Shown: positions 3 through 63,747 of the stretch, piece by piece | Layout: each line of letters begins with the position of its first letter | Position numbering within the stretch: the stretch's first letter is position 1 | Assembly: GCA_963932905.1 (NCBI GenBank) | Contig: CAWVRN010000006.1 | Span: forward strand, 97,821 to 161,820 | Reading direction: 5' to 3' | Source of the DNA: an uncultured Bdellovibrio sp. | Lineage (GTDB): Bacteria > Bdellovibrionota > Bdellovibrionia > Bdellovibrionales > Bdellovibrionaceae | Length of the DNA: 64,000 nt | Made by a program: the position numbers and the translations under genes | Notes under the pieces: model-generated | Databases searched by the model: none | The model's input: the letters and a program-made list of their open reading frames with translations, nothing else | Told to the model about the DNA's origin: nothing

Positions 3-986
3 CTACTTAAATTTTTCTTTCAAATCATCTAACAGAAAATATCGCTCAAATAAATCATTGTACCGTGACCAGCCTTCGTTACTGCCACGCTCGCTGCTAA
101 TGAAAGAATTTAAAGTGCTCATCTTGCTATCTAAATCGTCAACAAATGCGACTAAAAACGCTTCGATAAATTTCGGTCGTTTTGGAGAACCATATTCCAG
201 TTTTCCATGATGGCTTAAAATAATATGCTTACATATATCTTTTAGCTCGCTTGGAAATCCCATGATACGACTGGATTTCTTATCCACCAATTCACACGCA
301 ATTTCCATATGACCTATCAGACGTCCACGCGTAGTGTAGTTGAACATGTGCTCGTATTCAAGTTCCCAAAGTTTCCCGATGTCATGAAAGATCGCACCGA
401 AATACAGAAGATCACGGTTTAAAAAGCCATAGTGTTCAGACAAACCTTTTAAGATCTTGATAATCGACAAAATATGTTCCAGTAAGCCGCCATACCACGC
501 ATGGTGGATAGTCTTAGCGGCCGGTGCTTTGAACATCATCGGCTTAATTTCTGGGTCTTCAAGAACGGACAACACTAACAGTTTAATGTGTTCATTCTGA
601 ATTTCCTTCGCAAAAATCATAAGCTCGGCAAACATATCTTCTGGCGATTTTGCAGAACTCAAAACAAAATCACTTAATTGATAAGAACTTAATTCTTGAC
701 GAGTGATTTTAGAAATAATCAGCTGTTTTCTATTTTGAAAAACTTGAACGCTAGCTTTAACCAAAATGACATCGCCGGTATCAAACTCTTTACTTAGATC
801 TTCGACTTGATCCCAAACTCGGCCATCGATATTTCCCGTATTGTCCCCTAGCACCAGTGACATAAAGGGTTTGCCCGTCTTTCCCACTCCCAGATTTTTT
901 TCTTTAACCAAAAAAACGGATTGAACTGACTCTTTATCTTTTAAGTCTTTAACTAATATACGAGGCGTTTTATTTAATTCTTGCAT
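3..986 (-). CDS. yhaM: 3'-5' exoribonuclease YhaM/CBF1 family (OB-fold + HD domain)
   Basis: N-terminal OB-fold (GKPFMSLVLGDNTGNIDGRVWD); PAAKTIHHAWYGGLLEH, HDIGK, GRLIGH, SHHGKLEYGSP motifs. Confidence 0.9.
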   Translation of the reverse strand: MQELNKTPRILVKDLKDKESVQSVFLVKEKNLGVGKTGKPFMSLVLGDNTGNIDGRVWDQVEDLSKEFDTGDVILVKASVQVFQNRKQLIISKITRQELSSYQLSDFVLSSAKSPEDMFAELMIFAKEIQNEHIKLLVLSVLEDPEIKPMMFKAPAAKTIHHAWYGGLLEHILSIIKILKGLSEHYGFLNRDLLYFGAIFHDIGKLWELEYEHMFNYTTRGRLIGHMEIACELVDKKSSRIMGFPSELKDICKHIILSHHGKLEYGSPKRPKFIEAFLVAFVDDLDSKMSTLNSFISSERGSNEGWSRYNDLFERYFLLDDLKEKFK

Positions 987-54918: not shown

Positions 54919-56430
54919 ATGAAAAAAATATTAGGCGCATTAGCTATATTAGCTTTGTCAGCACAAGCACTAGCGGTCACTTACGTTGACCCAGCTTTAA
55001 ATAACTTTCTTAACACACGTGCCGTTCAAACAACTCGCGTCGTTGTTCTGTTAAAATATCCAACAAATTTACCAGCGCCTCGTCGTTACGCAAGCACTTC
55101 GGTAAAACAATATTTAATTCAAATGTACCAAGCCTCTGCAAAAAATGTGGCCGGCGTGGTTCAAGCAAATTCTCGTGATATCAAAGTGGTTAACCAATTC
55201 TGGATCAACAATTCTATCGCGTTTGATGTAACTCCAACAGGTCTTCGTGCTTTATCTCAGAGCCCTGCTGTTGAAAAAATCTACGCTAACCGTAAAGTTA
55301 ACTACACTTTACCAGTTGAAGCTCATCCTGCACGTAGCCTTCGTGAAGCCTCTGATTACACATACGGCTTAAAAGATCTTGGTATTGATAAATTGGCTGC
55401 GGAACGCCCAGACATCAATGGTTCTGGCGTGGTGGTTGGTTTAGTTGATACAGGTATCGACGGCAAACACCCGGCTTTGAAAGGCAAAATCGCGTTATTC
55501 TATGATGCCTCTCAAAACAAAATCACTGAACCGACTGATAGACAATCTCACGGTACACACACAACAGGAACTATTCTTGGTGGCGATCGTGATAGCGTAA
55601 AAATCGGCGTAGCTCCGGGCGCGAAAATGATCGGCTCTGCGGCTCTAGATGGCTACGATATGATGCTTAAATCAATGCAATTCATGCTTGATCCAGATGG
55701 CAATCCACAAACTGCGGATGCGCCTCGTTTGATCAGCAATTCATGGAATGCCGGTGGTGCACCAGATATCGAATTATTTTATCGTGCAATCACTGCTTGG
55801 GAAGCTGCGGGTATCTTGCCAGTATTTTCCGCAGGTAACGCGGGTCCTGGGCCAAAAACAATCACGACTCCACATGAACACCCTTCTGTTCTTGCTGTTG
55901 GTGCGACAGGTTCAAATTTCAAAATTGCATCTTTCTCATCTCGCGGTCCAGCGGTTTTCCAAGGCAAAACGGTTCAAAAACCTGATTTCACAGCCCCAGG
56001 CGTAAACGTACTTTCATCTGTTCCTGGTGGTGGTTACCAAGAAATGTCTGGTACCTCTATGGCGTGCCCACACGCTGCGGGTGTAGCGACATTGTTATTC
56101 CAAGTGAATCCAAAATTCACTCCACAAAACATTCGCGAAATCTTGATGAAGACATTACGTTTTGTTGATCAAAACGGTGGGCCAATTGCGTCTCCAGTTT
56201 GGAACCCAGTTTATGGCTTTGGTCGCTTAGATGCTTACGCGGCAGTTAAAGCAGCATTGGGAACGGCTCGTTCACGTTTTGCTTCGGCAGGATTTGGTGC
56301 ATTCCAACTAGCATCAACTCTACCTATGGTTGAAGGTGCGACATTAGCTCTACAAGAATCATCATCTGATGTTTCAGATTTAACGGCTCCCTACGCAACA
56401 GACTCTGCAAACTGGATTGTTGTTAAATAA
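54919..56430 (+). CDS. Secreted subtilisin-like S8 serine protease
   Basis: Triad VDTG, HGTH, SGTSMACP; signal peptide and prodomain. Confidence 0.95.
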   Translation: MKKILGALAILALSAQALAVTYVDPALNNFLNTRAVQTTRVVVLLKYPTNLPAPRRYASTSVKQYLIQMYQASAKNVAGVVQANSRDIKVVNQFWINNSIAFDVTPTGLRALSQSPAVEKIYANRKVNYTLPVEAHPARSLREASDYTYGLKDLGIDKLAAERPDINGSGVVVGLVDTGIDGKHPALKGKIALFYDASQNKITEPTDRQSHGTHTTGTILGGDRDSVKIGVAPGAKMIGSAALDGYDMMLKSMQFMLDPDGNPQTADAPRLISNSWNAGGAPDIELFYRAITAWEAAGILPVFSAGNAGPGPKTITTPHEHPSVLAVGATGSNFKIASFSSRGPAVFQGKTVQKPDFTAPGVNVLSSVPGGGYQEMSGTSMACPHAAGVATLLFQVNPKFTPQNIREILMKTLRFVDQNGGPIASPVWNPVYGFGRLDAYAAVKAALGTARSRFASAGFGAFQLASTLPMVEGATLALQESSSDVSDLTAPYATDSANWIVVK

Positions 56431-56526: not shown

Positions 56527-57279
56527 CTAGTAACTAATCAACCACGATTTTTGAACATGGCCTGACCAGCTGATCGACCGCGTTTTTCCATCACTTGAAG
56601 TCGACAATGAGAACTGGCAACCACTGTTATCTGTATTCATGAAATTACCATCCGGCAGGAATGCCAATCGAGTCATATCGCCAGCCGTATTATTCGAGAA
56701 TGAACCCAGCACTTGACCGTTTTGCAATCTTAGCAACACTTCTTTGTAAGCCACGTTGTTACCGCATGCATAGATAGCTTCTACTGGCGAATATGCTGGC
56801 ACAGCTGCGTTCTGCCCGTTACAGACAGTCATCGATTGCTGATTAGGGGCTTCGACGCTATAAACGCCGGTATTGCCAATATCGGTAGCCATTAGGATTG
56901 TTGACCCACCTGCAGGACATTGCTCAACGGAAGCCGCTACAACCGCAAAGGCAACCCCTTTTCCGTCGACACCGTTTGTACCATTAGTCCCGTTGCTTCC
57001 GTTCGTTCCATTACATACATTAAAACTTTTAAGAATCGAATCATCGGCATCTAAATCTTCACTCTGATTTAAATCTACGTAGATCGTATAAACGATACCA
57101 CCTTGACTGCATTCCGAGCTCGTAGCTGGTCGCACATCCACGCTTTGGTTGTTTTGGGCATCTGAAATCTTTTGCACGTTATTGGCTGTTGTAGGCACTA
57201 CTTCAGTCCTGTCGGTACACCCCAGAGGAACTAATACAGAGATTAACATTGCAATGAACAGTTGTTTTGTCATTTCCAC
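56527..57279 (-). CDS. Lipoprotein with CxxGG repeats and collagen-like NG(T/S) linker
   Basis: Lipobox PLGC; ECSQGG / QCPAGG, VCNG twice, NGTNGSNGTNGTNGVDG. Confidence 0.75.
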   Translation of the reverse strand: MEMTKQLFIAMLISVLVPLGCTDRTEVVPTTANNVQKISDAQNNQSVDVRPATSSECSQGGIVYTIYVDLNQSEDLDADDSILKSFNVCNGTNGSNGTNGTNGVDGKGVAFAVVAASVEQCPAGGSTILMATDIGNTGVYSVEAPNQQSMTVCNGQNAAVPAYSPVEAIYACGNNVAYKEVLLRLQNGQVLGSFSNNTAGDMTRLAFLPDGNFMNTDNSGCQFSLSTSSDGKTRSISWSGHVQKSWLISY

Positions 57280-57527: not shown

Positions 57528-60500
57528 TTAGTAGATTTCTACGAAGAATTTGAAAGCGGCTTCGTTTTTAATTTTGTTTACAATATCTGGGTTCGTTATC
57601 ACGAATGAGTTTGCACTTGCTGTGTAATCCGTTGGACTCAATTCGATGAATTTGCCTTTTGTGAACCATGATGAATACCAAACTCTTGTGATTTGTTGTG
57701 ATGGATCGATATCTACCACTTTGAAAGAGCTGGCTAATTGAGCCGCTACTTTTTCACCTAAGAACTTCAGTGCATCACCATATACACTACTATCGGCCTT
57801 AACGTCGCGGATTTGACCGCCTACGCTTTGAGCGATTCGGTTGTAATCAGCACCTTCCGCTACACCGTTGGTTACACTTTGGTTAGCAAACGCAATCATG
57901 CTTACATAACCGTCACCAAGTACGTTATCGAAACTGTTTTTAATATAGTTTTCTAAGTTAATTTCGTTCTCGCGAACTAGCTTAACTTCATTTGATGGAC
58001 TTGGATCTGCGTCGTAGTATTGAACTTTGCTACGAACGTATTTATTCGGCAACACTATTCCGGAAGGCTTAGTGCATTCGTTTTCAACCACTGCGAAACT
58101 TGATTTACCTGTGATTTGTACCGATGCCTTACGGACCATCTTACAAGACGCCACTTTTGCAGGATCCATGTTTTGGTTTTTCATTGCGATGTATTGTCTT
58201 ACAGTGGATTGTGAATTATCAACTTCACTATTAACAGCCAATTTACACAAGCCACTTTCAGCGCAAGTTAACGAACACACATCAACGTCATGTTGGTATT
58301 TGGCACTATCACTGTTAGCAATCGTTAATCGAACTGAAGCCATTGAACGAACCGACGAACCCGTTGTTGCAACACTACCAATGCTACACGCATTGTTGTA
58401 GAACTGATTCATAGTTTTACCAGTATATGGCACTGCAAAACTACTCGCATCTTTTGTTTTACAAGAATCTGCTGTACATAGATCATCACAACTAACTGGG
58501 GCATCGATCGCTTTGGCAACTGCTACATCAGTTAGCGAAGAATCATATGAAAGATAGTTCGAATATTGAACTGATTTATCACGGCACTCAGAATAGTCAG
58601 TCATAAAGCTTCCGTTACAAGCTACTAGGCCTACTGAATCCGTTACTGTGTTTGCGGAACGAGCGACTTTAGCCAATGCTGCGTAATCAGTAGCATTCCC
58701 ACCAGAGTATTTTTGTTTGAAGTATTCACCAACCACAACTGAATTGTGAGCAGCCGTTGCACCTACGCAAGCACCGGGGACTTCAGCACAGGTTAAGTTT
58801 AATAAGTTCACGCCAACATCTTGACCAGCTTTATTTTTAGTAACAATCTGCTCAAAACCAAACCAATGAAGTTCGGCAGCATCCGCTGGTTTCACTGGAG
58901 GTTTCAACGAATACTTACGATATTCCGGCTTATAAGCGCGATAGGAAACGTAAGTTGTTGGCTTATTCTCACAAGCTAACAATGAATTTGGATTGTTAGT
59001 CGCGTTACCTGTGCAATAGGAAGCAATGGCCGTTTCACACTGGCTTGCGTTTGTAGAATATTTTACGGCTGAATCAGAGTTAATGGCATTCAAGATTTTT
59101 GTTTTATTAGCATTGGTCCAAGTGACTTCCGAATTGTAAACTCGGCAGTGATTTTTTAGATCTGGAACCAGAATATTACCATCGATATTTAGAGCCGGCG
59201 AAGCAGCGGATTCTTGCGCTAATATATCGCTTAACTCGGTATCCGAACATGCACGAGACGAGCCTACATCCGCACCCAAGTCGGATTCATAAGGAACTGC
59301 TTTGTGTCCATAACCACCATCATATTTCACAGGAACGTTGTTACGTACAATTTGGTAAGGAGAGGAAGACGTAGTGGAACATGAAACCTTTGAGTATACA
59401 AGAGACTGGCCTGACGACAACGCTGGTTTACTGTTATCAATGTTTGAAGCATATGCTACGTCACATGTCGCGGGTGCTTTACCGTCAACAGTAACTTTAA
59501 CTGCCAACGAAGCTTTATAAGTCGCTTTGTTTGTTACGCTTGTGTTGTCGTAACTCACATTGGTCTTACCATCTTTAGTAGCGATGTAAGAATTCAACGC
59601 ACCGTTAACGGCCGAATCATATTTTCCGTCAATGCCGTTGATTGCTTGGTTAGCTTCGACCACGTTGGCCGAAGATGCTGACTCAGAGGAATACAACGTA
59701 TTCGCACGTTTTCCATCTTTAGCAACGATATTATTATGTATGTCTGTTGAATTGGAAGGAGCGGCTCCGACTACCAGAATAGATTGGTTAGCTTCAACAA
59801 CATTTGTGTCAGTTGCGGAATAGTTGGAATAAGACGTATTCGACCTATTACCATCTTGTGTTTTGATATGGTCTAACAAACCGGACACAGGGGCCGCGCC
59901 GGAAAGGTTTGCAATCTCGACGTTGTTTGCTGTTGTCGAAGCATCGTTACAAGCAATCTCACTATACACTAGTGTTTCGCCTTTACCGCTATCTACGCTT
60001 GGTTTTGACGAGTCAATAGAACTAGCATATGCTGGTGTACACGAAGACGCCGAAGGAGTTACTCCGTCTTTAGCAATATTCAATGGCGCAATCGTTACTA
60101 TGGAAGCGCGGCTTAAACAATCTACTGATAAGTAGGTGAAAGATTCGTTAGCAGCGAGTGTACCTTCGGAATATACACCTTTAGCTAAAGCTTCGCTACA
60201 GCTAGACGCTGCTGGTTGAACACCAACAACTTCAACAACTTTATTATCAGCCGTCTCATCGTTATTGATCACACACTCAGTAACTGTGTATTTGTAACTT
60301 TCATTAGCACTCAATGTTTTCTCTAATGAATAAACAGCAGGAACTGTTCTTAACCAGTCTTGAGTACATTGTGAAATACTAGCAAAATTTACATTAGACA
60401 CACGAATGGGACTCGGAGGCGTGTAAGTTTCAACTACTACTGTTTGGTTACCCTCTTTTTTAAGAATAGTTTCGCGCTTGTAGTTTACTCTTTGATACTT

Positions 60501-61988
60501 AGCCACTTTTTTACGTTTGATATCTACAGCATATTTTGGAGCTGTATGAGTACGTTTACCAGTCACTGCATATTTTTGGCTGGTACGATTAAAGTTGATT
60601 TTATGTTTTAACGTTGTACGAGTGAAATTCAAATTGTGTTTGATGTTAACACGGTCAAATTTCAAATCATGCTTCCAGAAATCAACAACATCGTCACCTT
60701 TTGAATCGACAACTTTTCTATCAAATGTTACCACGTGGGTATTTTTCAATACTTTTAAACGAGCTAACGATTGATTAAATTTAATATCGCAACTTGCCAT
60801 TCTTTCTGCTAACTCAGGTTGAATACTTTCGTAGGCCCAAAGAACGTGGCGTGTGTATGGCTTTTTAACTTTGAACGTAACTGTTTTATTACTTGGGATT
60901 GCGTAAGAAACATTGGAATCTGTATCTGCACACTCACCTTTATATAAAAATCCTGGAACTGGTTGTTGGAATTTATAAGACTTAACACATTCCAAACCTT
61001 GAGGATCATGTTCTTTTTCATCAGATACTAGAATGAAAGTTGCTAATTCACCTTTTTTGATTAATGAGTTTTCTGGATTGTTTTTAACTTCATGAAGAAC
61101 GCGGGCCATCGCGCACAAACCACTCTCTTTTTCTACTACTTCAGACAACGGAACGTTATCAACTGTTGAACCATTATAAGCGATGCTTTTCGATAAGAAT
61201 TGTTTATCTGGATCTAAAAACTCCACACGAGCTTTTATTTTATTTACAAGGTCTTGTATGGATTCACCCTTTGAATATTTAACTGATACAATGCTAGGTT
61301 GATCAACGTGAGTTAAATACGCTGGCGAAAATTCAGAATTTAGCACGTCGTATTTCGTCCCGACGCTTGATGGAGCACGCACCGTACGTAATTTAAAACC
61401 GACCATGTCGCCTTCTAATAACCCAGAAGTTTTTCTTGCCGATAAATTACCTTCAGCTGGACGGAACACTTCGATCATGCTTTGAACAAATTGAACACTT
61501 GAAATTTCGTAGATCTTTTCAATAATTTTTTGATAATCATTTTTAGCATCTACAGTTGATCTAAATAGTGAATTACCAATATTGTTTAATTGAGCTGTCG
61601 TTAAAATAAAGATCTCTGAATTATAATCCGCAAGACCTTGGCTGTTCGCCGAAAACATTTTTTCAATATTGTTCACTAAATTAACTTGGCTTACGCGCAT
61701 TGAATCCGAGTTGTCTAACACCAAGAAGATTTTTAAATCAGGGATAACTGGTTGAGATACGTCGATGTAACGATACTCTTCGACTTTACCAGTGGGCTGT
61801 GCATTTGTACAACGAACGTGTGTGGGGTTCACAGCACAGATGTCCTGCACCAGAGTATCAGATGCCGTCTCTTCCATCTTCAGCGCAATGTCGCCCTGCT
61901 GACCGCAGTTCTGGAAGAAAAGAATACTTACTACGCTCAACGCAACCCACGCAGAAAAGCCAGATAAGAAATTTCGGTTGATTTTCAT
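57528..61988 (-). CDS. Large surface lipoprotein/adhesin with split vWA (MIDAS) domain and Cys-rich repeat insert
   Basis: FFQNC lipobox; IFLVLDNSDSM MIDAS; FILVSDE; late vWA elements GADYNRIAQSVGG...YGDAL; about 45-55 aa repeats. Confidence 0.8.
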   Translation of the reverse strand: MKINRNFLSGFSAWVALSVVSILFFQNCGQQGDIALKMEETASDTLVQDICAVNPTHVRCTNAQPTGKVEEYRYIDVSQPVIPDLKIFLVLDNSDSMRVSQVNLVNNIEKMFSANSQGLADYNSEIFILTTAQLNNIGNSLFRSTVDAKNDYQKIIEKIYEISSVQFVQSMIEVFRPAEGNLSARKTSGLLEGDMVGFKLRTVRAPSSVGTKYDVLNSEFSPAYLTHVDQPSIVSVKYSKGESIQDLVNKIKARVEFLDPDKQFLSKSIAYNGSTVDNVPLSEVVEKESGLCAMARVLHEVKNNPENSLIKKGELATFILVSDEKEHDPQGLECVKSYKFQQPVPGFLYKGECADTDSNVSYAIPSNKTVTFKVKKPYTRHVLWAYESIQPELAERMASCDIKFNQSLARLKVLKNTHVVTFDRKVVDSKGDDVVDFWKHDLKFDRVNIKHNLNFTRTTLKHKINFNRTSQKYAVTGKRTHTAPKYAVDIKRKKVAKYQRVNYKRETILKKEGNQTVVVETYTPPSPIRVSNVNFASISQCTQDWLRTVPAVYSLEKTLSANESYKYTVTECVINNDETADNKVVEVVGVQPAASSCSEALAKGVYSEGTLAANESFTYLSVDCLSRASIVTIAPLNIAKDGVTPSASSCTPAYASSIDSSKPSVDSGKGETLVYSEIACNDASTTANNVEIANLSGAAPVSGLLDHIKTQDGNRSNTSYSNYSATDTNVVEANQSILVVGAAPSNSTDIHNNIVAKDGKRANTLYSSESASSANVVEANQAINGIDGKYDSAVNGALNSYIATKDGKTNVSYDNTSVTNKATYKASLAVKVTVDGKAPATCDVAYASNIDNSKPALSSGQSLVYSKVSCSTTSSSPYQIVRNNVPVKYDGGYGHKAVPYESDLGADVGSSRACSDTELSDILAQESAASPALNIDGNILVPDLKNHCRVYNSEVTWTNANKTKILNAINSDSAVKYSTNASQCETAIASYCTGNATNNPNSLLACENKPTTYVSYRAYKPEYRKYSLKPPVKPADAAELHWFGFEQIVTKNKAGQDVGVNLLNLTCAEVPGACVGATAAHNSVVVGEYFKQKYSGGNATDYAALAKVARSANTVTDSVGLVACNGSFMTDYSECRDKSVQYSNYLSYDSSLTDVAVAKAIDAPVSCDDLCTADSCKTKDASSFAVPYTGKTMNQFYNNACSIGSVATTGSSVRSMASVRLTIANSDSAKYQHDVDVCSLTCAESGLCKLAVNSEVDNSQSTVRQYIAMKNQNMDPAKVASCKMVRKASVQITGKSSFAVVENECTKPSGIVLPNKYVRSKVQYYDADPSPSNEVKLVRENEINLENYIKNSFDNVLGDGYVSMIAFANQSVTNGVAEGADYNRIAQSVGGQIRDVKADSSVYGDALKFLGEKVAAQLASSFKVVDIDPSQQITRVWYSSWFTKGKFIELSPTDYTASANSFVITNPDIVNKIKNEAAFKFFVEIY

Positions 61989-62178: not shown

Positions 62179-63282
62179 ATGGATACAAACGTTCAAAAAA
62201 CACCCCTTAATGACAATCATAAAAAGCGTGGCGCCAAAATGGTAAGTTTTGCCGGTTGGGAAATGCCTATTCAGTACACACAACTGAAAGAAGAACATCA
62301 CGCGGTTAGAAAAGCCGTTGGGCTTTTTGATGTTTCTCATATGGGTGAAATTCGCTTCAAAGGTCCAGAGGCATTAAATACGTTACAGTGGTTAACTACA
62401 AATGACGTTGCGAAACTTGAGTCGGGCCAGGCACAATATTCGTTGCTACCCAATGCAACGGGTGGCCTAGTTGATGATATCATCGTTTATTGCCTAGAAA
62501 AAAATAGTGACTACCTGGTGTGCGTAAATGCTGCCAACAAAGACAAAGATTTTGCTTGGATGACTAAAAACAATCGCGGAGCTCAGATAACTGATGAAAG
62601 TAGTCAATGGGGACAGATCGCGGTACAAGGTCCGAACGCTCTAGCGTTGTTGAACGCCATTTTTAATGAATCTTTTGATAACGTAAAAACCTTCAGTGTC
62701 CTTCATCGGAAATTTACTAACCACAAAGGCAAACCAGTTGATGTCATCATCGCGACCACGGGTTATACGGGCGAACGTGGTGCCGAAATTTTTGTTCCCT
62801 GGAGCGAAACTGAAAGTCTATGGGATTTTTTGCTGGAAAAAGGACAACCCTTTGGTGTGCAACCCATCGGCCTAGGTGCTCGTGATACTTTACGCACGGA
62901 AAAGAAAATGTCTTTGTACGGACATGAAATCAATGACGAAATCAATCCATACGAATCTGGATTGGGATGGGCGATTAAACCCGACGCCAAAGACTTTATG
63001 GGTCGAACTGCCATTTTAAAAGGCAAAGAAGCCGGCTTAAAGAAGAAGCTTATCGGTTTGCGCATGCTGGAAAAGGGAATTCCCCGTGAAATGTACACAT
63101 TATATTCTGCCGATGGCGCGCAAACAGGCTGGATAACAAGCGGGACCCATTCGCCGTCTTTAGATGCACCTATTGGTATTGGCTATGTGAACGTTAAAGA
63201 CGCTGAAATCGGTACCGAAATCCTTGTGGATATACGCGGACGTAAAGTTAAAGCACAGGTGTGCAAAACGCCTTTTGTTTAA
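62179..63282 (+). CDS. gcvT: Glycine cleavage system T protein
   Basis: FAGWEMP, FDVSHMGE, IAVQGP, TGYTGE, GLGARDTLR. Confidence 0.97.
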   Translation: MDTNVQKTPLNDNHKKRGAKMVSFAGWEMPIQYTQLKEEHHAVRKAVGLFDVSHMGEIRFKGPEALNTLQWLTTNDVAKLESGQAQYSLLPNATGGLVDDIIVYCLEKNSDYLVCVNAANKDKDFAWMTKNNRGAQITDESSQWGQIAVQGPNALALLNAIFNESFDNVKTFSVLHRKFTNHKGKPVDVIIATTGYTGERGAEIFVPWSETESLWDFLLEKGQPFGVQPIGLGARDTLRTEKKMSLYGHEINDEINPYESGLGWAIKPDAKDFMGRTAILKGKEAGLKKKLIGLRMLEKGIPREMYTLYSADGAQTGWITSGTHSPSLDAPIGIGYVNVKDAEIGTEILVDIRGRKVKAQVCKTPFV

Positions 63283-63357
63283 GGCTTTGCCTTGACTTTC
63301 GGGGCAAAACAAATTGTATTTGGTAGCGATTAATACCGTTAAAAATAGAGGTTTAGA

Positions 63358-63747
63358 ATGGTTTACAGAATTCCAGAAGATAATTACTACACAAAAGAAC
63401 ACGAGTGGGCTCAAGTTGATGAAAATATCGTCACAGTAGGAATTACTGAATTCGCACAAAACCAACTAGGTGAAATCGTATACGTAGAACTTCCAGAAGA
63501 AGGTCAAAAAGTTACTCAAAATCAACCATTTGGGGTAGTTGAAAGCGTTAAAGCGGTGAGCGACCTTTATTCACCCGTTTCTGGAACTGTTATCGAAGTA
63601 AACAATACGCTTGTTGATGACCCTGCTCCGTTAAACGACGATCCAATGAACGATGGCTGGTTAATCCGCATCGAGATGGACACTGAAAAAGAACTAGCTC
63701 AGTTAATGAGAGCTGGTGACTACAAAAAACTAATCGCTGAAAAATAA
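63358..63747 (+). CDS. gcvH: Glycine cleavage system H protein
   Basis: YTKEHEW, VGITEFAQ, lipoyl site VESVKAVSD. Confidence 0.97.
   Translation: MVYRIPEDNYYTKEHEWAQVDENIVTVGITEFAQNQLGEIVYVELPEEGQKVTQNQPFGVVESVKAVSDLYSPVSGTVIEVNNTLVDDPAPLNDDPMNDGWLIRIEMDTEKELAQLMRAGDYKKLIAEK

Follow-up and report, generated by a model that had tools for sequence, protein, structure and literature searches.

This study concerns one gene on the reverse strand of a 64,000-nucleotide stretch of DNA (hereafter the window) from an uncultured Bdellovibrio sp. (assembly GCA_963932905.1, contig CAWVRN010000006.1, positions 97,821 to 161,820). As judged from its sequence, the product of this gene, P0001, is probably a secreted, lipid-anchored protein of a Bdellovibrio-like bacterium with a metal-ion-dependent adhesion site (MIDAS) in a vWA domain. 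We consider it likely that this vWA domain is split by a nested rod, in which repeats on the outgoing part of the chain pair in mirror order with repeats on the returning part. Three concordant lines support the nesting: the co-variation of unit counts among relatives, an AlphaFold2 (AF2) model, and a two-chain test with ESMFold2, the last two being predictions.

In the proposed architecture, the chain would leave the vWA domain as a beta strand of ~100 residues with hardly a break, in which seven units of 11-13 amino acids each end in an arginine. It would turn at a K-E-G hairpin and return as seven units, each comprising a helix and a long strand. The returning units would pack on the outgoing strand in reversed order (s7-A, s6-B, s5-C, s4-D, s3-E, s2-F and s1-G). 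Each structural unit would consist of two distant pieces of sequence, with all inner units topologically inserted within it, and how long the rod is would depend on how many matched pairs it has (about 2 to 7 across the family). At a rise of roughly 3.2-3.4 Å per residue, 100 residues would give a rod of ~30 nm, which is presumably stiff.

Mirror-ordered repeats and their predicted pairing

A preliminary description of this DNA had reported seven short basic strands at window positions 60740-60471, followed after a turn by seven repeats at 60400-59350, which in the protein are residues 417-506 and 530-880 (window position 61988-3(n-1) being the first base of residue n). All the strands and motifs quoted in it are present. 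The outgoing strands are HVVTFDR (418-424), HDLKFDR (440-446), HNLNFTR (451-457), HKINFNR (462-468), YAVTGKR (473-479), YAVDIKR (486-492) and YQRVNYKR (498-505), and follow the pattern K-[HY]-x-h-x-x-x-R with a period of 11-13 residues. The arginine ending each unit (R424, R446, R457, R468, R479, R492 and R505) does not vary among 16 homologues, the most distant at 49% identity. This repetition exceeds chance, as 8/21 strand pairs score at least 15 (ungapped BLOSUM62), compared with only 0.25% of the 11-mer pairs that served as background within this protein. The spacing of successive invariant arginines (60462-60740, reverse strand) is 11, 11, 11, 13 and 13, always odd, and 22 across the hairpin excursion between s1 and s2, whereas the unit period is 16 in relatives with four and five units. 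With an odd period the side-chain face flips from unit to unit, which would fit helices packing on alternating faces.

The seven returning units, of 44-52 amino acids each, span residues 528-875. They contain P-x-ASSC at 592-597 and 644-650, NVVEANQ twice and (K/Q)DG..N..Y three times, and fall into two sub-families. Units A, B, C and G are Cys-paired (z of 8.9 for A-B, 5.9 for B-C, 4.7 for B-G and 12.9 for C-G), and units D, E and F are Cys-free (13.3 for D-E, 4.9 for D-F and 2.1 for E-F). Scores between the sub-families were not above those of shuffles in the window protein; the two are tied together by the homologues P0011, P0014 and P0016, which have Cys pairs in D or E (in D in the case of P0016). 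Self-BLAST listed no internal repeats, given that the units are too short and divergent.

The turn at the tip is well conserved. E512 and G513 are invariant in alignment A1, the glycine aligns with one that is invariant in all 26 rows of alignment A5, and the motif [RK]-[DE]-G is conserved in all clades, its D-G being invariant in the 14 rows of alignment A6. The need for a tight turn suffices to explain this conservation, and a role of the motif in ligand binding would be speculation.

AF2 was run on residues 398-885 using 11 aligned rows derived from DNA references (model number +397 = residue) and returned a model with a mean predicted local distance difference test score (pLDDT) of 87.4 and a predicted template-modelling score (pTM) of 0.46. 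Residues 411-510 were modelled as nearly one strand (segments E14-30, E38-51, E53-73 and E75-113, with breaks of one to seven residues) at a pLDDT of 88-96, while residues 398-410 had a low pLDDT. After the turn at 511-515 came seven repeats of a helix and a strand region of 19-27 residues, and this helix-plus-long-strand pattern was the same in all seven returning units. Foldseek found no match to the rod model in the PDB at E <=1e-3 (best template-modelling score 0.05-0.11, secretins and others), and VIA-align against 48,161 chains gave only generic small alpha/beta matches, with a best Z of 5.1. These matches are alpha/beta domains of ~52-62 residues whose model ranges are discontinuous, joining s7 with A, s6 with B, s5 with C, s3 with E and s2 with F (Table 1), from which it follows that each compact unit of the AF2 model combines one outgoing segment with the mirror-ordered returning unit.

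In the ESMFold2 test, residues 525-885 were given as chain 1 and residues 398-524 as its partner, with a 10-row alignment each. The interface score ipSAE (interaction prediction score from aligned errors) was 0.67, against 0.00 for the best control; 116/157 solved complexes and 2/215 mismatched pairs attained this level, counts that are a rough guide only, as our own alignments were used. Three runs agreed in at least 96% of contacts, with a partner pLDDT of 84-85. On the outgoing chain, residues 415-511 were listed as in contact except 430 and 432, and residues 512-518 were not listed. On the returning chain, the interface comprised seven blocks (562-592, 614-645, 669-700, 717-744, 763-790, 810-839 and 860-873). 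The pairs of lowest error are anti-diagonal: 585-488, 638-475, 674-480, 690-466, 692-464, 695-462, 720-467 and 728-462, and further 731-458, 735-455, 737-453, 738-452, 764/766/769 with 455-458, 781-444 and 783-442. The invariant tyrosines of D and E (Y720 and Y766) touch neighbours of the invariant arginines of s4 and s3, respectively. Because the residue sums are near-constant within each run of pairs, we infer that each outgoing unit has a returning strand on either side, and that each of these strands spans two units. The rod would then consist of split beta-alpha-beta motifs, staggered about a single central strand.

The contact list of ESMFold2 and the alignment ranges of the AF2 model thus agree on the anti-diagonal linkage that the preliminary description had predicted, and, together with the co-variation described below, they bear out its nested, mirror-ordered reading in silico. 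Its notion of domains inserted one within another holds in the form of mirror pairs and not of separate beads, as the outgoing chain of the AF2 model is nearly one strand and its returning strands, of 23-27 amino acids, cross the domain borders that the description had drawn.

Independent tandem domains are the default architecture of bacterial surface repeats, and the seven repeats could accordingly be tandem mini-domains, with the basic strands forming a hairpin stack, a solenoid or a disordered linker. Four of the units have their own Cys pair and could be self-contained, and the pTM of the AF2 model is only 0.46. We nevertheless regard this arrangement as very improbable. A 100-residue strand at a pLDDT of 88-96 cannot stand alone, the contacts and alignment ranges place each strand unit against a specific returning unit, and the pLDDT of the returning chain falls from 90 to 61-66 in ESMFold2 when an unrelated partner is supplied. 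The length of the outgoing segment also tracks the number of units, with 16 amino acids added per unit.

Pairing in trans would place the outgoing strand of one molecule on the returning units of another, yielding a strand-swapped dimer or a fibre. It would need matched counts as well, and the interface is predicted equally well with the halves as separate chains; however, the connecting turn of ~5 residues, with its glycine invariant in the 26 rows of A5, favours an intramolecular hairpin, and AF2 is confident of the monomer on its own. Such a swap is therefore unlikely, and the intramolecular nested rod is the reading retained below.

Unit numbers among relatives

A word-indexed search returned 16 proteins including the query, all of 1474-1497 amino acids. 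An exhaustive HMMER scan with residues 287-1486 as the query, covering 1.84 billion representatives, gave 23 proteins at E <=1e-3, among which relatives of ~920-1090 amino acids match only the ends of the query (residues ~287-400 and ~1156-1486), with E values of 2.4e-31 to 1.9e-13 for their homology to the window protein. A match at E <=1e-5 is present in 29/182 genomes of the family. All 10/10 genomes of the window's genus, the window's own included, carry the full-length gene in the 7/7 form, and the open frames in other genera encode 914-1095 amino acids. A metagenome scan added only 3 loci.

For the co-variation analysis, 54 sequences were pooled and 3 duplicates dropped, leaving 51, in which Cys spacing was tabulated from the last conserved Cys before the repeats. 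Units were counted from tables of Cys gaps and from landmark distances, a hidden Markov model built from the four strand units of the relative P0024 being too specific for other proteins. The Cys-free outgoing segment is 62 amino acids long with 3 returning units in P0033, 64 with 3 units in P0030, P0038, L042, L044 and L047, 78-79 with 4 units in 7 proteins, 94 with 5 units (one of them Cys-free) in P0028, and 139-141 with 7 units in 25 proteins including that of the window. In six proteins, a gap of 56-59 amino acids, with ~30 outgoing to the tip, is followed by two units, as counted by eye. Six rows were left uncounted, namely P0019 (a fragment), L040, L039, L048 (two open reading frames, ORFs) and L049, owing to a misassigned landmark or to an insert of another construction. 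In L048 (4256-7519, reverse strand) and L049 (3642-6788, forward strand), the outgoing segment consists of four or five units of ~12 amino acids starting with Cys (C-x-[VL]-x-Y...), and the region after it is dissimilar.

Given that the segmentation bounded the number of domains by the number of strands, the independent count is that of Cys gaps from the tip to a constant tail of ten gaps: 10, 14 and 16 for 3, 4 and 5 units. The outgoing and returning landmark distances are 67/185, 83/244-260 and 99/319 amino acids, which amounts to 16 more outgoing per ~65 more returning; their Spearman correlation is 0.75 over 26 rows that are not independent of one another. The out and back counts across relatives are about 2/2, 3/3, 4/4, 5/5 and 7/7, and no unequal counts were found among the clades that could be segmented. 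This is the co-variation that the preliminary description had anticipated for homologues. Matched counts without exception argue for selection on pairing.

Shorter forms may extend this series. Genus g4 gave 0/44 genomes with a match to this query. Its genomes contain FQNC-vWA ORFs of 364-381 amino acids with an uninterrupted domain, which match the N part of the profile at E 2e-7 to 8e-7, and ORFs of 549-552 amino acids with an insert of ~190 amino acids after beta4, bearing a Y-R-D-G hairpin and one Cys-paired unit. Examples are L057 (697-1791, reverse strand), a 364-amino-acid ORF with no insert, and L052 (1453-3102, forward strand), a 549-amino-acid ORF with the ~190-amino-acid insert. These are possibly the 0-unit and 1-unit ends of the series, and the g4 ORFs hint at a range from 0 to 7 units.

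With regard to how the number of units changes, the preliminary description had envisaged paired duplication at two distant sites or nested insertion. Within the window's genus the number is fixed, and Tandem Repeats Finder (TRF) found no tandem DNA array in the repeat region. The only direct repeats in the DNA of the array are remnants of 14-21 nucleotides, so the repeats are old. As the unit number is fixed in the genus and there is no repeat signature in the DNA, the rod is not a rapidly variable stalk. Surface proteins with length-variable tandem repeats are known as the 'periscope' type, in which the DNA repeats are near-identical and differ in copy number between close strains; the window protein falls outside it, with no TRF array, repeats of 14-21 nucleotides and the 7/7 form in 10/10 genomes.

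The probable split of the vWA domain, its setting and the weight of the evidence

The features of the gene are collected in Table 1. At the N terminus is a hydrophobic signal, after which comes FFQNC (Cys28), and the Q, N and C of FQNC are invariant across all 26 relatives of A5. A D-x-S-x-S motif follows beta1 and an acidic residue follows beta4, as in vWA domains. D92, N93, S94, D95, S96, D323 and E324 are invariant in 16 homologues, and D, N and S in 26 relatives; over the N-terminal part of the vWA domain, hhalign of A1 against A6 gave a probability of 100% (E 1.8e-47).

Table 1. Features of the rod gene in the window, with residue numbers of P0001; H and E denote helices and strands, and VIA denotes ranges in AF2 model numbering
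Feature	Window position	Strand	Residues	Details
Whole gene (P0001)	57528..61988	-		1486 amino acids plus stop codon; from ORF list and translation
Signal peptide and lipobox-like FQNC	61905..61988	-	1-28	Cys28
vWA, N-terminal part	61014..61742	-	~83-325	beta1 85-91; MIDAS D92-N-S94-D-S96; beta4 315-321; D323; positions via A5 onto the P0024 model
Connector after beta4	60759..61013	-	326-410	Cys334, Cys353 and Cys400 invariant across all clades
Outgoing strand	60459..60758	-	411-510	Seven units, s1-s7
Outgoing units			417-509	s1 417-427; s2 439-449; s3 450-460; s4 461-471; s5 472-484; s6 485-496; s7 497-509
Hairpin excursion	60678-60707	-	428-437	D-S-x-G-x-D-V-V; conserved; between s1 and s2
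Tip turn K-E-G-N-Q	60444..60458	-	511-515	AF2 gap between E75-113 and E119-125
Unit A	60258..60407	-	528-577	Cys541-Cys572, both invariant; predicted partner s7 (VIA 96..186, 101..178, 103..178)
Unit B	60105..60242	-	583-628	Cys597-Cys624; predicted partner s6 (VIA 87..230, 88..231; contact 585-488)
Unit C	59937..60092	-	633-684	Cys650-Cys680; predicted partner s5 (VIA 75..285, 79..281; contacts 638-475, 674-480)
Unit D	59781..59927	-	688-736	Cys-free; predicted partner s4 (contacts 690-466, 692-464, 695-462, 720-467)
Unit E	59643..59780	-	737-782	Cys-free; predicted partner s3 (VIA 52..378, 53..377, 54..382; contacts 737-453, 738-452)
Unit F	59511..59642	-	783-826	Cys-free; predicted partner s2 (VIA 37..425, 41..424, 42..425; contacts 781-444, 783-442)
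Unit G	59364..59510	-	827-875	Cys842-Cys870; putative partner s1 (interface block 860-873)
Cys-rich module	57960..59348	-	881-1343	Between rod and return into vWA
vWA, C-terminal part	57732..57959	-	1344-1419	Mapped via A5 onto P0024 H846-859, E865-870, H885-894, E897-900, H905-924
C-terminal small beta domain	57531..57731	-	1420-1486	P0024 model strands E926-984 and E48-53

The split was seen in an AF2 model of the relative P0024 (985 amino acids, 4/4 units), built on a 26-row alignment with a mean pLDDT of 82.9 and a pTM of 0.58. The top Foldseek rows for this model were integrin betaI domains and the pilus adhesin PitA (7w6b), at E 5.6e-3 and weaker. VIA-align on the Foldseek candidates gave Z 12-13 for integrin betaI chains, and 178/996 chains reached Z >=8. 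The alpha1 I domain 1qcy aligned over 183/193 residues (root-mean-square deviation, rmsd, 3.1 Å; Z 12.2; model residues 61..921), and the bacterial vWA domain 4fx5 over 182 residues (rmsd 3.2 Å, Z 12.4). The I-domain alignments indicate that residues ~61-272 and ~846-924 together build the vWA domain of P0024, and that the rod and the Cys-rich module lie between them. The ~190-residue Rossmann-like alpha/beta fold is thus present in the model of this relative and was transferred by alignment to the window protein, in which an insertion of ~1020 amino acids directly after beta4, beside the MIDAS, would split the domain. The loop that follows beta4 helps to form the MIDAS in I domains, so the insertion should leave from the ligand-binding face, and the rod would project from it.

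Alignments with the integrin beta headpiece span P0024 46..985 (250-277 aligned residues, Z 12-13) and suggest a small beta domain, comparable to the hybrid one, to which both termini contribute. In the window protein, the C-terminal end is strongly conserved, and the probable partner of its small beta domain is a strand close to the N terminus, at about residues 71-76. The short relatives match the query over residues 1156-1486, and the spacings of the Cys-rich module (e.g., gaps 4,5 and 4,6) are conserved in every clade. This module is ~260 amino acids longer in the window's genus than in the short relatives.

Searches of Pfam, NCBIfam and PDB sequences with the whole protein gave nothing above threshold, and the ESM Atlas yielded no usable match for it. 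DUF5737 over residues 385-473 was considered and set aside as sub-threshold (E 0.049, 14 bits).

By analogy with the Bdellovibrio MIDAS adhesin Bd0875, the protein may be exposed at the surface and act as an adhesin or probe in contact between cells, the prey included. Alternatively, the same structure could face the periplasm on an outer-membrane lipoprotein, its ~30 nm rod serving as an envelope spacer or ruler. The rod would be of the order of the periplasmic width, its unit number is fixed within the genus as expected of a ruler, and no adhesin partner or secretion gene is conserved alongside. We consider this placement improbable, since the invariant MIDAS motif points to ligand binding and related Bdellovibrio MIDAS lipoproteins are reported to be invasion-associated adhesins of a surface secretome (PMC11003981).

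No conserved neighbours of the rod gene were found beyond synteny at the level of the genus. The downstream gene (56527-57279, reverse strand) encodes 250 amino acids with a G-T-N-G-S-N-G-T-N-G-T-N-G run and sub-threshold similarity to DUF7151 (E 4.5e-5) and GspH (E 4.7e-3); its place behind the rod gene is confined to the closest relatives (5 loci, 3 distinct). The flanks (54919-56430 and 62179-63747, both forward) are ordinary, with genes for an S8 subtilase (E 1.8e-52), a glycine-cleavage T protein (E 1.4e-92) and, probably, an H protein. Within the genus, these genes stay syntenic with the rod gene.

Several points weigh against the nested rod in a split vWA domain. The structural support is prediction throughout, and AF2 and ESMFold2 may both be inclined to zip long strands together. 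The alignments had little depth (11 rows, of which five are 78-82% identical to the query), the AF2 pairing was read indirectly from alignment ranges and not from coordinates, predicted aligned error or a contact map, and the two-chain controls were unrelated proteins and not re-ordered strands. The pairing of s1 with G follows from the order of the other pairs alone. The preliminary description had lined up the similarity classes of the strands with those of the repeats; a mirror mapping does fit them better (r=0.40, rank 183/5040 permutations) than a direct one (r=-0.13, rank 3549/5040), but the match is only modest and weak when taken alone. In comparisons of P0028 with the seven 4-unit proteins, the best-omitted strand and domain lay at mirror positions in 3/7 cases, a noisy result, and comparisons of the 4-unit proteins with P0033 were equally noisy; the unit pair gained or lost among the 3-, 4- and 5-unit relatives was not identifiable in this way. 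As to the vWA domain, its split was carried over from P0024 and not taken from a fold of the window protein itself. No Pfam VWA match above the gathering score was obtained for the window protein, 1/26 relatives matches VWA_2 (E 0.023), and a PDB profile search gave 0 matches; if the domain is indeed split and divergent, a missing Pfam match is expected. Finally, localisation and ligand are matters of deduction, as are the terms 'adhesin' and 'rigid' of the preliminary description.

Significance and comparison with known systems

Known repeat proteins are built of units that are contiguous in sequence. Here, units would join pieces up to ~450 residues apart, seven deep, and any change in length would need matched changes at two distant sites of the gene. 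The family would offer a natural graded series (roughly 2, 3, 4, 5 and 7 units) for studying the evolution and folding of nested arrays, and the MIDAS adhesins linked to prey invasion gain a large, conserved relative that had not been annotated before. A monomeric, disulfide-stapled rod of ~30 nm and programmable length would also be a useful scaffold for protein design.

A bolder proposal, put forward tentatively and with more doubt than confidence, is that these proteins represent the first 'mirror-repeat' class of repeat protein, formed by recursive insertion. A central strand of ~100 residues would be clamped by split beta-alpha-beta units in reverse order into a single-chain rod, with 2 to 7 matched pairs in Bdellovibrionaceae. 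The rod, leaving the MIDAS ligand-binding face, would be a graded-length probe of predatory bacteria, whose conserved [RK]-[DE]-G tip may itself be a MIDAS ligand, in which case the rods could assemble head to tip or engage a receptor on the prey. No description of a nested or out-and-back repeat stalk of this kind was found in open-access full text, which does not imply that none is in print.

The nearest proteins described so far are the MIDAS-family adhesin lipoproteins Bd0875 and Bd1483 of B. bacteriovorus. Each combines a signal peptide and lipobox with a vWA domain, whose MIDAS motif is D-x-S-x-S, and with a small beta-rich domain to which both termini contribute; Bd0875 has an extra 'cap' beside the MIDAS pocket (PMC11003981). 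The window protein comes from the same bacterial family and would share a lipobox, a MIDAS vWA domain and a small domain built from the termini; its FQNC is invariant and the P0024 model has strands E48-53 and E926-984. In contrast, the two adhesins, as described, have ~380 amino acids and an uninterrupted vWA domain, whereas ~1020 amino acids are inserted after beta4 here.

The working principle comes closest to that of the streptococcal antigen I/II proteins (SspB, AspA), in which helical repeats of the N-terminal part associate with polyproline repeats of the C-terminal part to form the stalk (PMC3178794). The likeness lies in an out-and-back stalk, in which sequence-distant repeat regions of one chain must match. 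In those wall-anchored proteins of Gram-positive bacteria, however, an alpha helix wraps with a polyproline helix and a globular V head sits at the tip (PMC3178794). In the window protein, a beta strand would be clamped by alpha/beta units, the tip would be a bare hairpin and the stalk would be inserted in the head domain itself. The helical A and polyproline-II P repeats that define antigen I/II are replaced in the predicted structure by an outgoing beta strand and a returning helix and strand, and the two systems would work alike with no relation in sequence or fold.

With integrin beta headpieces and PitA, the window protein has in common that a vWA or I-like domain takes part in the insertion of one domain in another. 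Nested domains also occur in RrgA, a pilus-tip adhesin of Gram-positive bacteria. As described, Bd0875, Bd1483, antigen I/II, integrin beta and PitA are all without a seven-deep nested repeat array or a continuous strand of ~100 residues. In integrin beta and the pilus-tip adhesins, the vWA domain is the inserted domain at the tip, and the nesting involves 2-3 levels of unrelated domains. In the window protein, by contrast, the vWA domain would be the host, and its insert would be an array of repeats nested seven deep.

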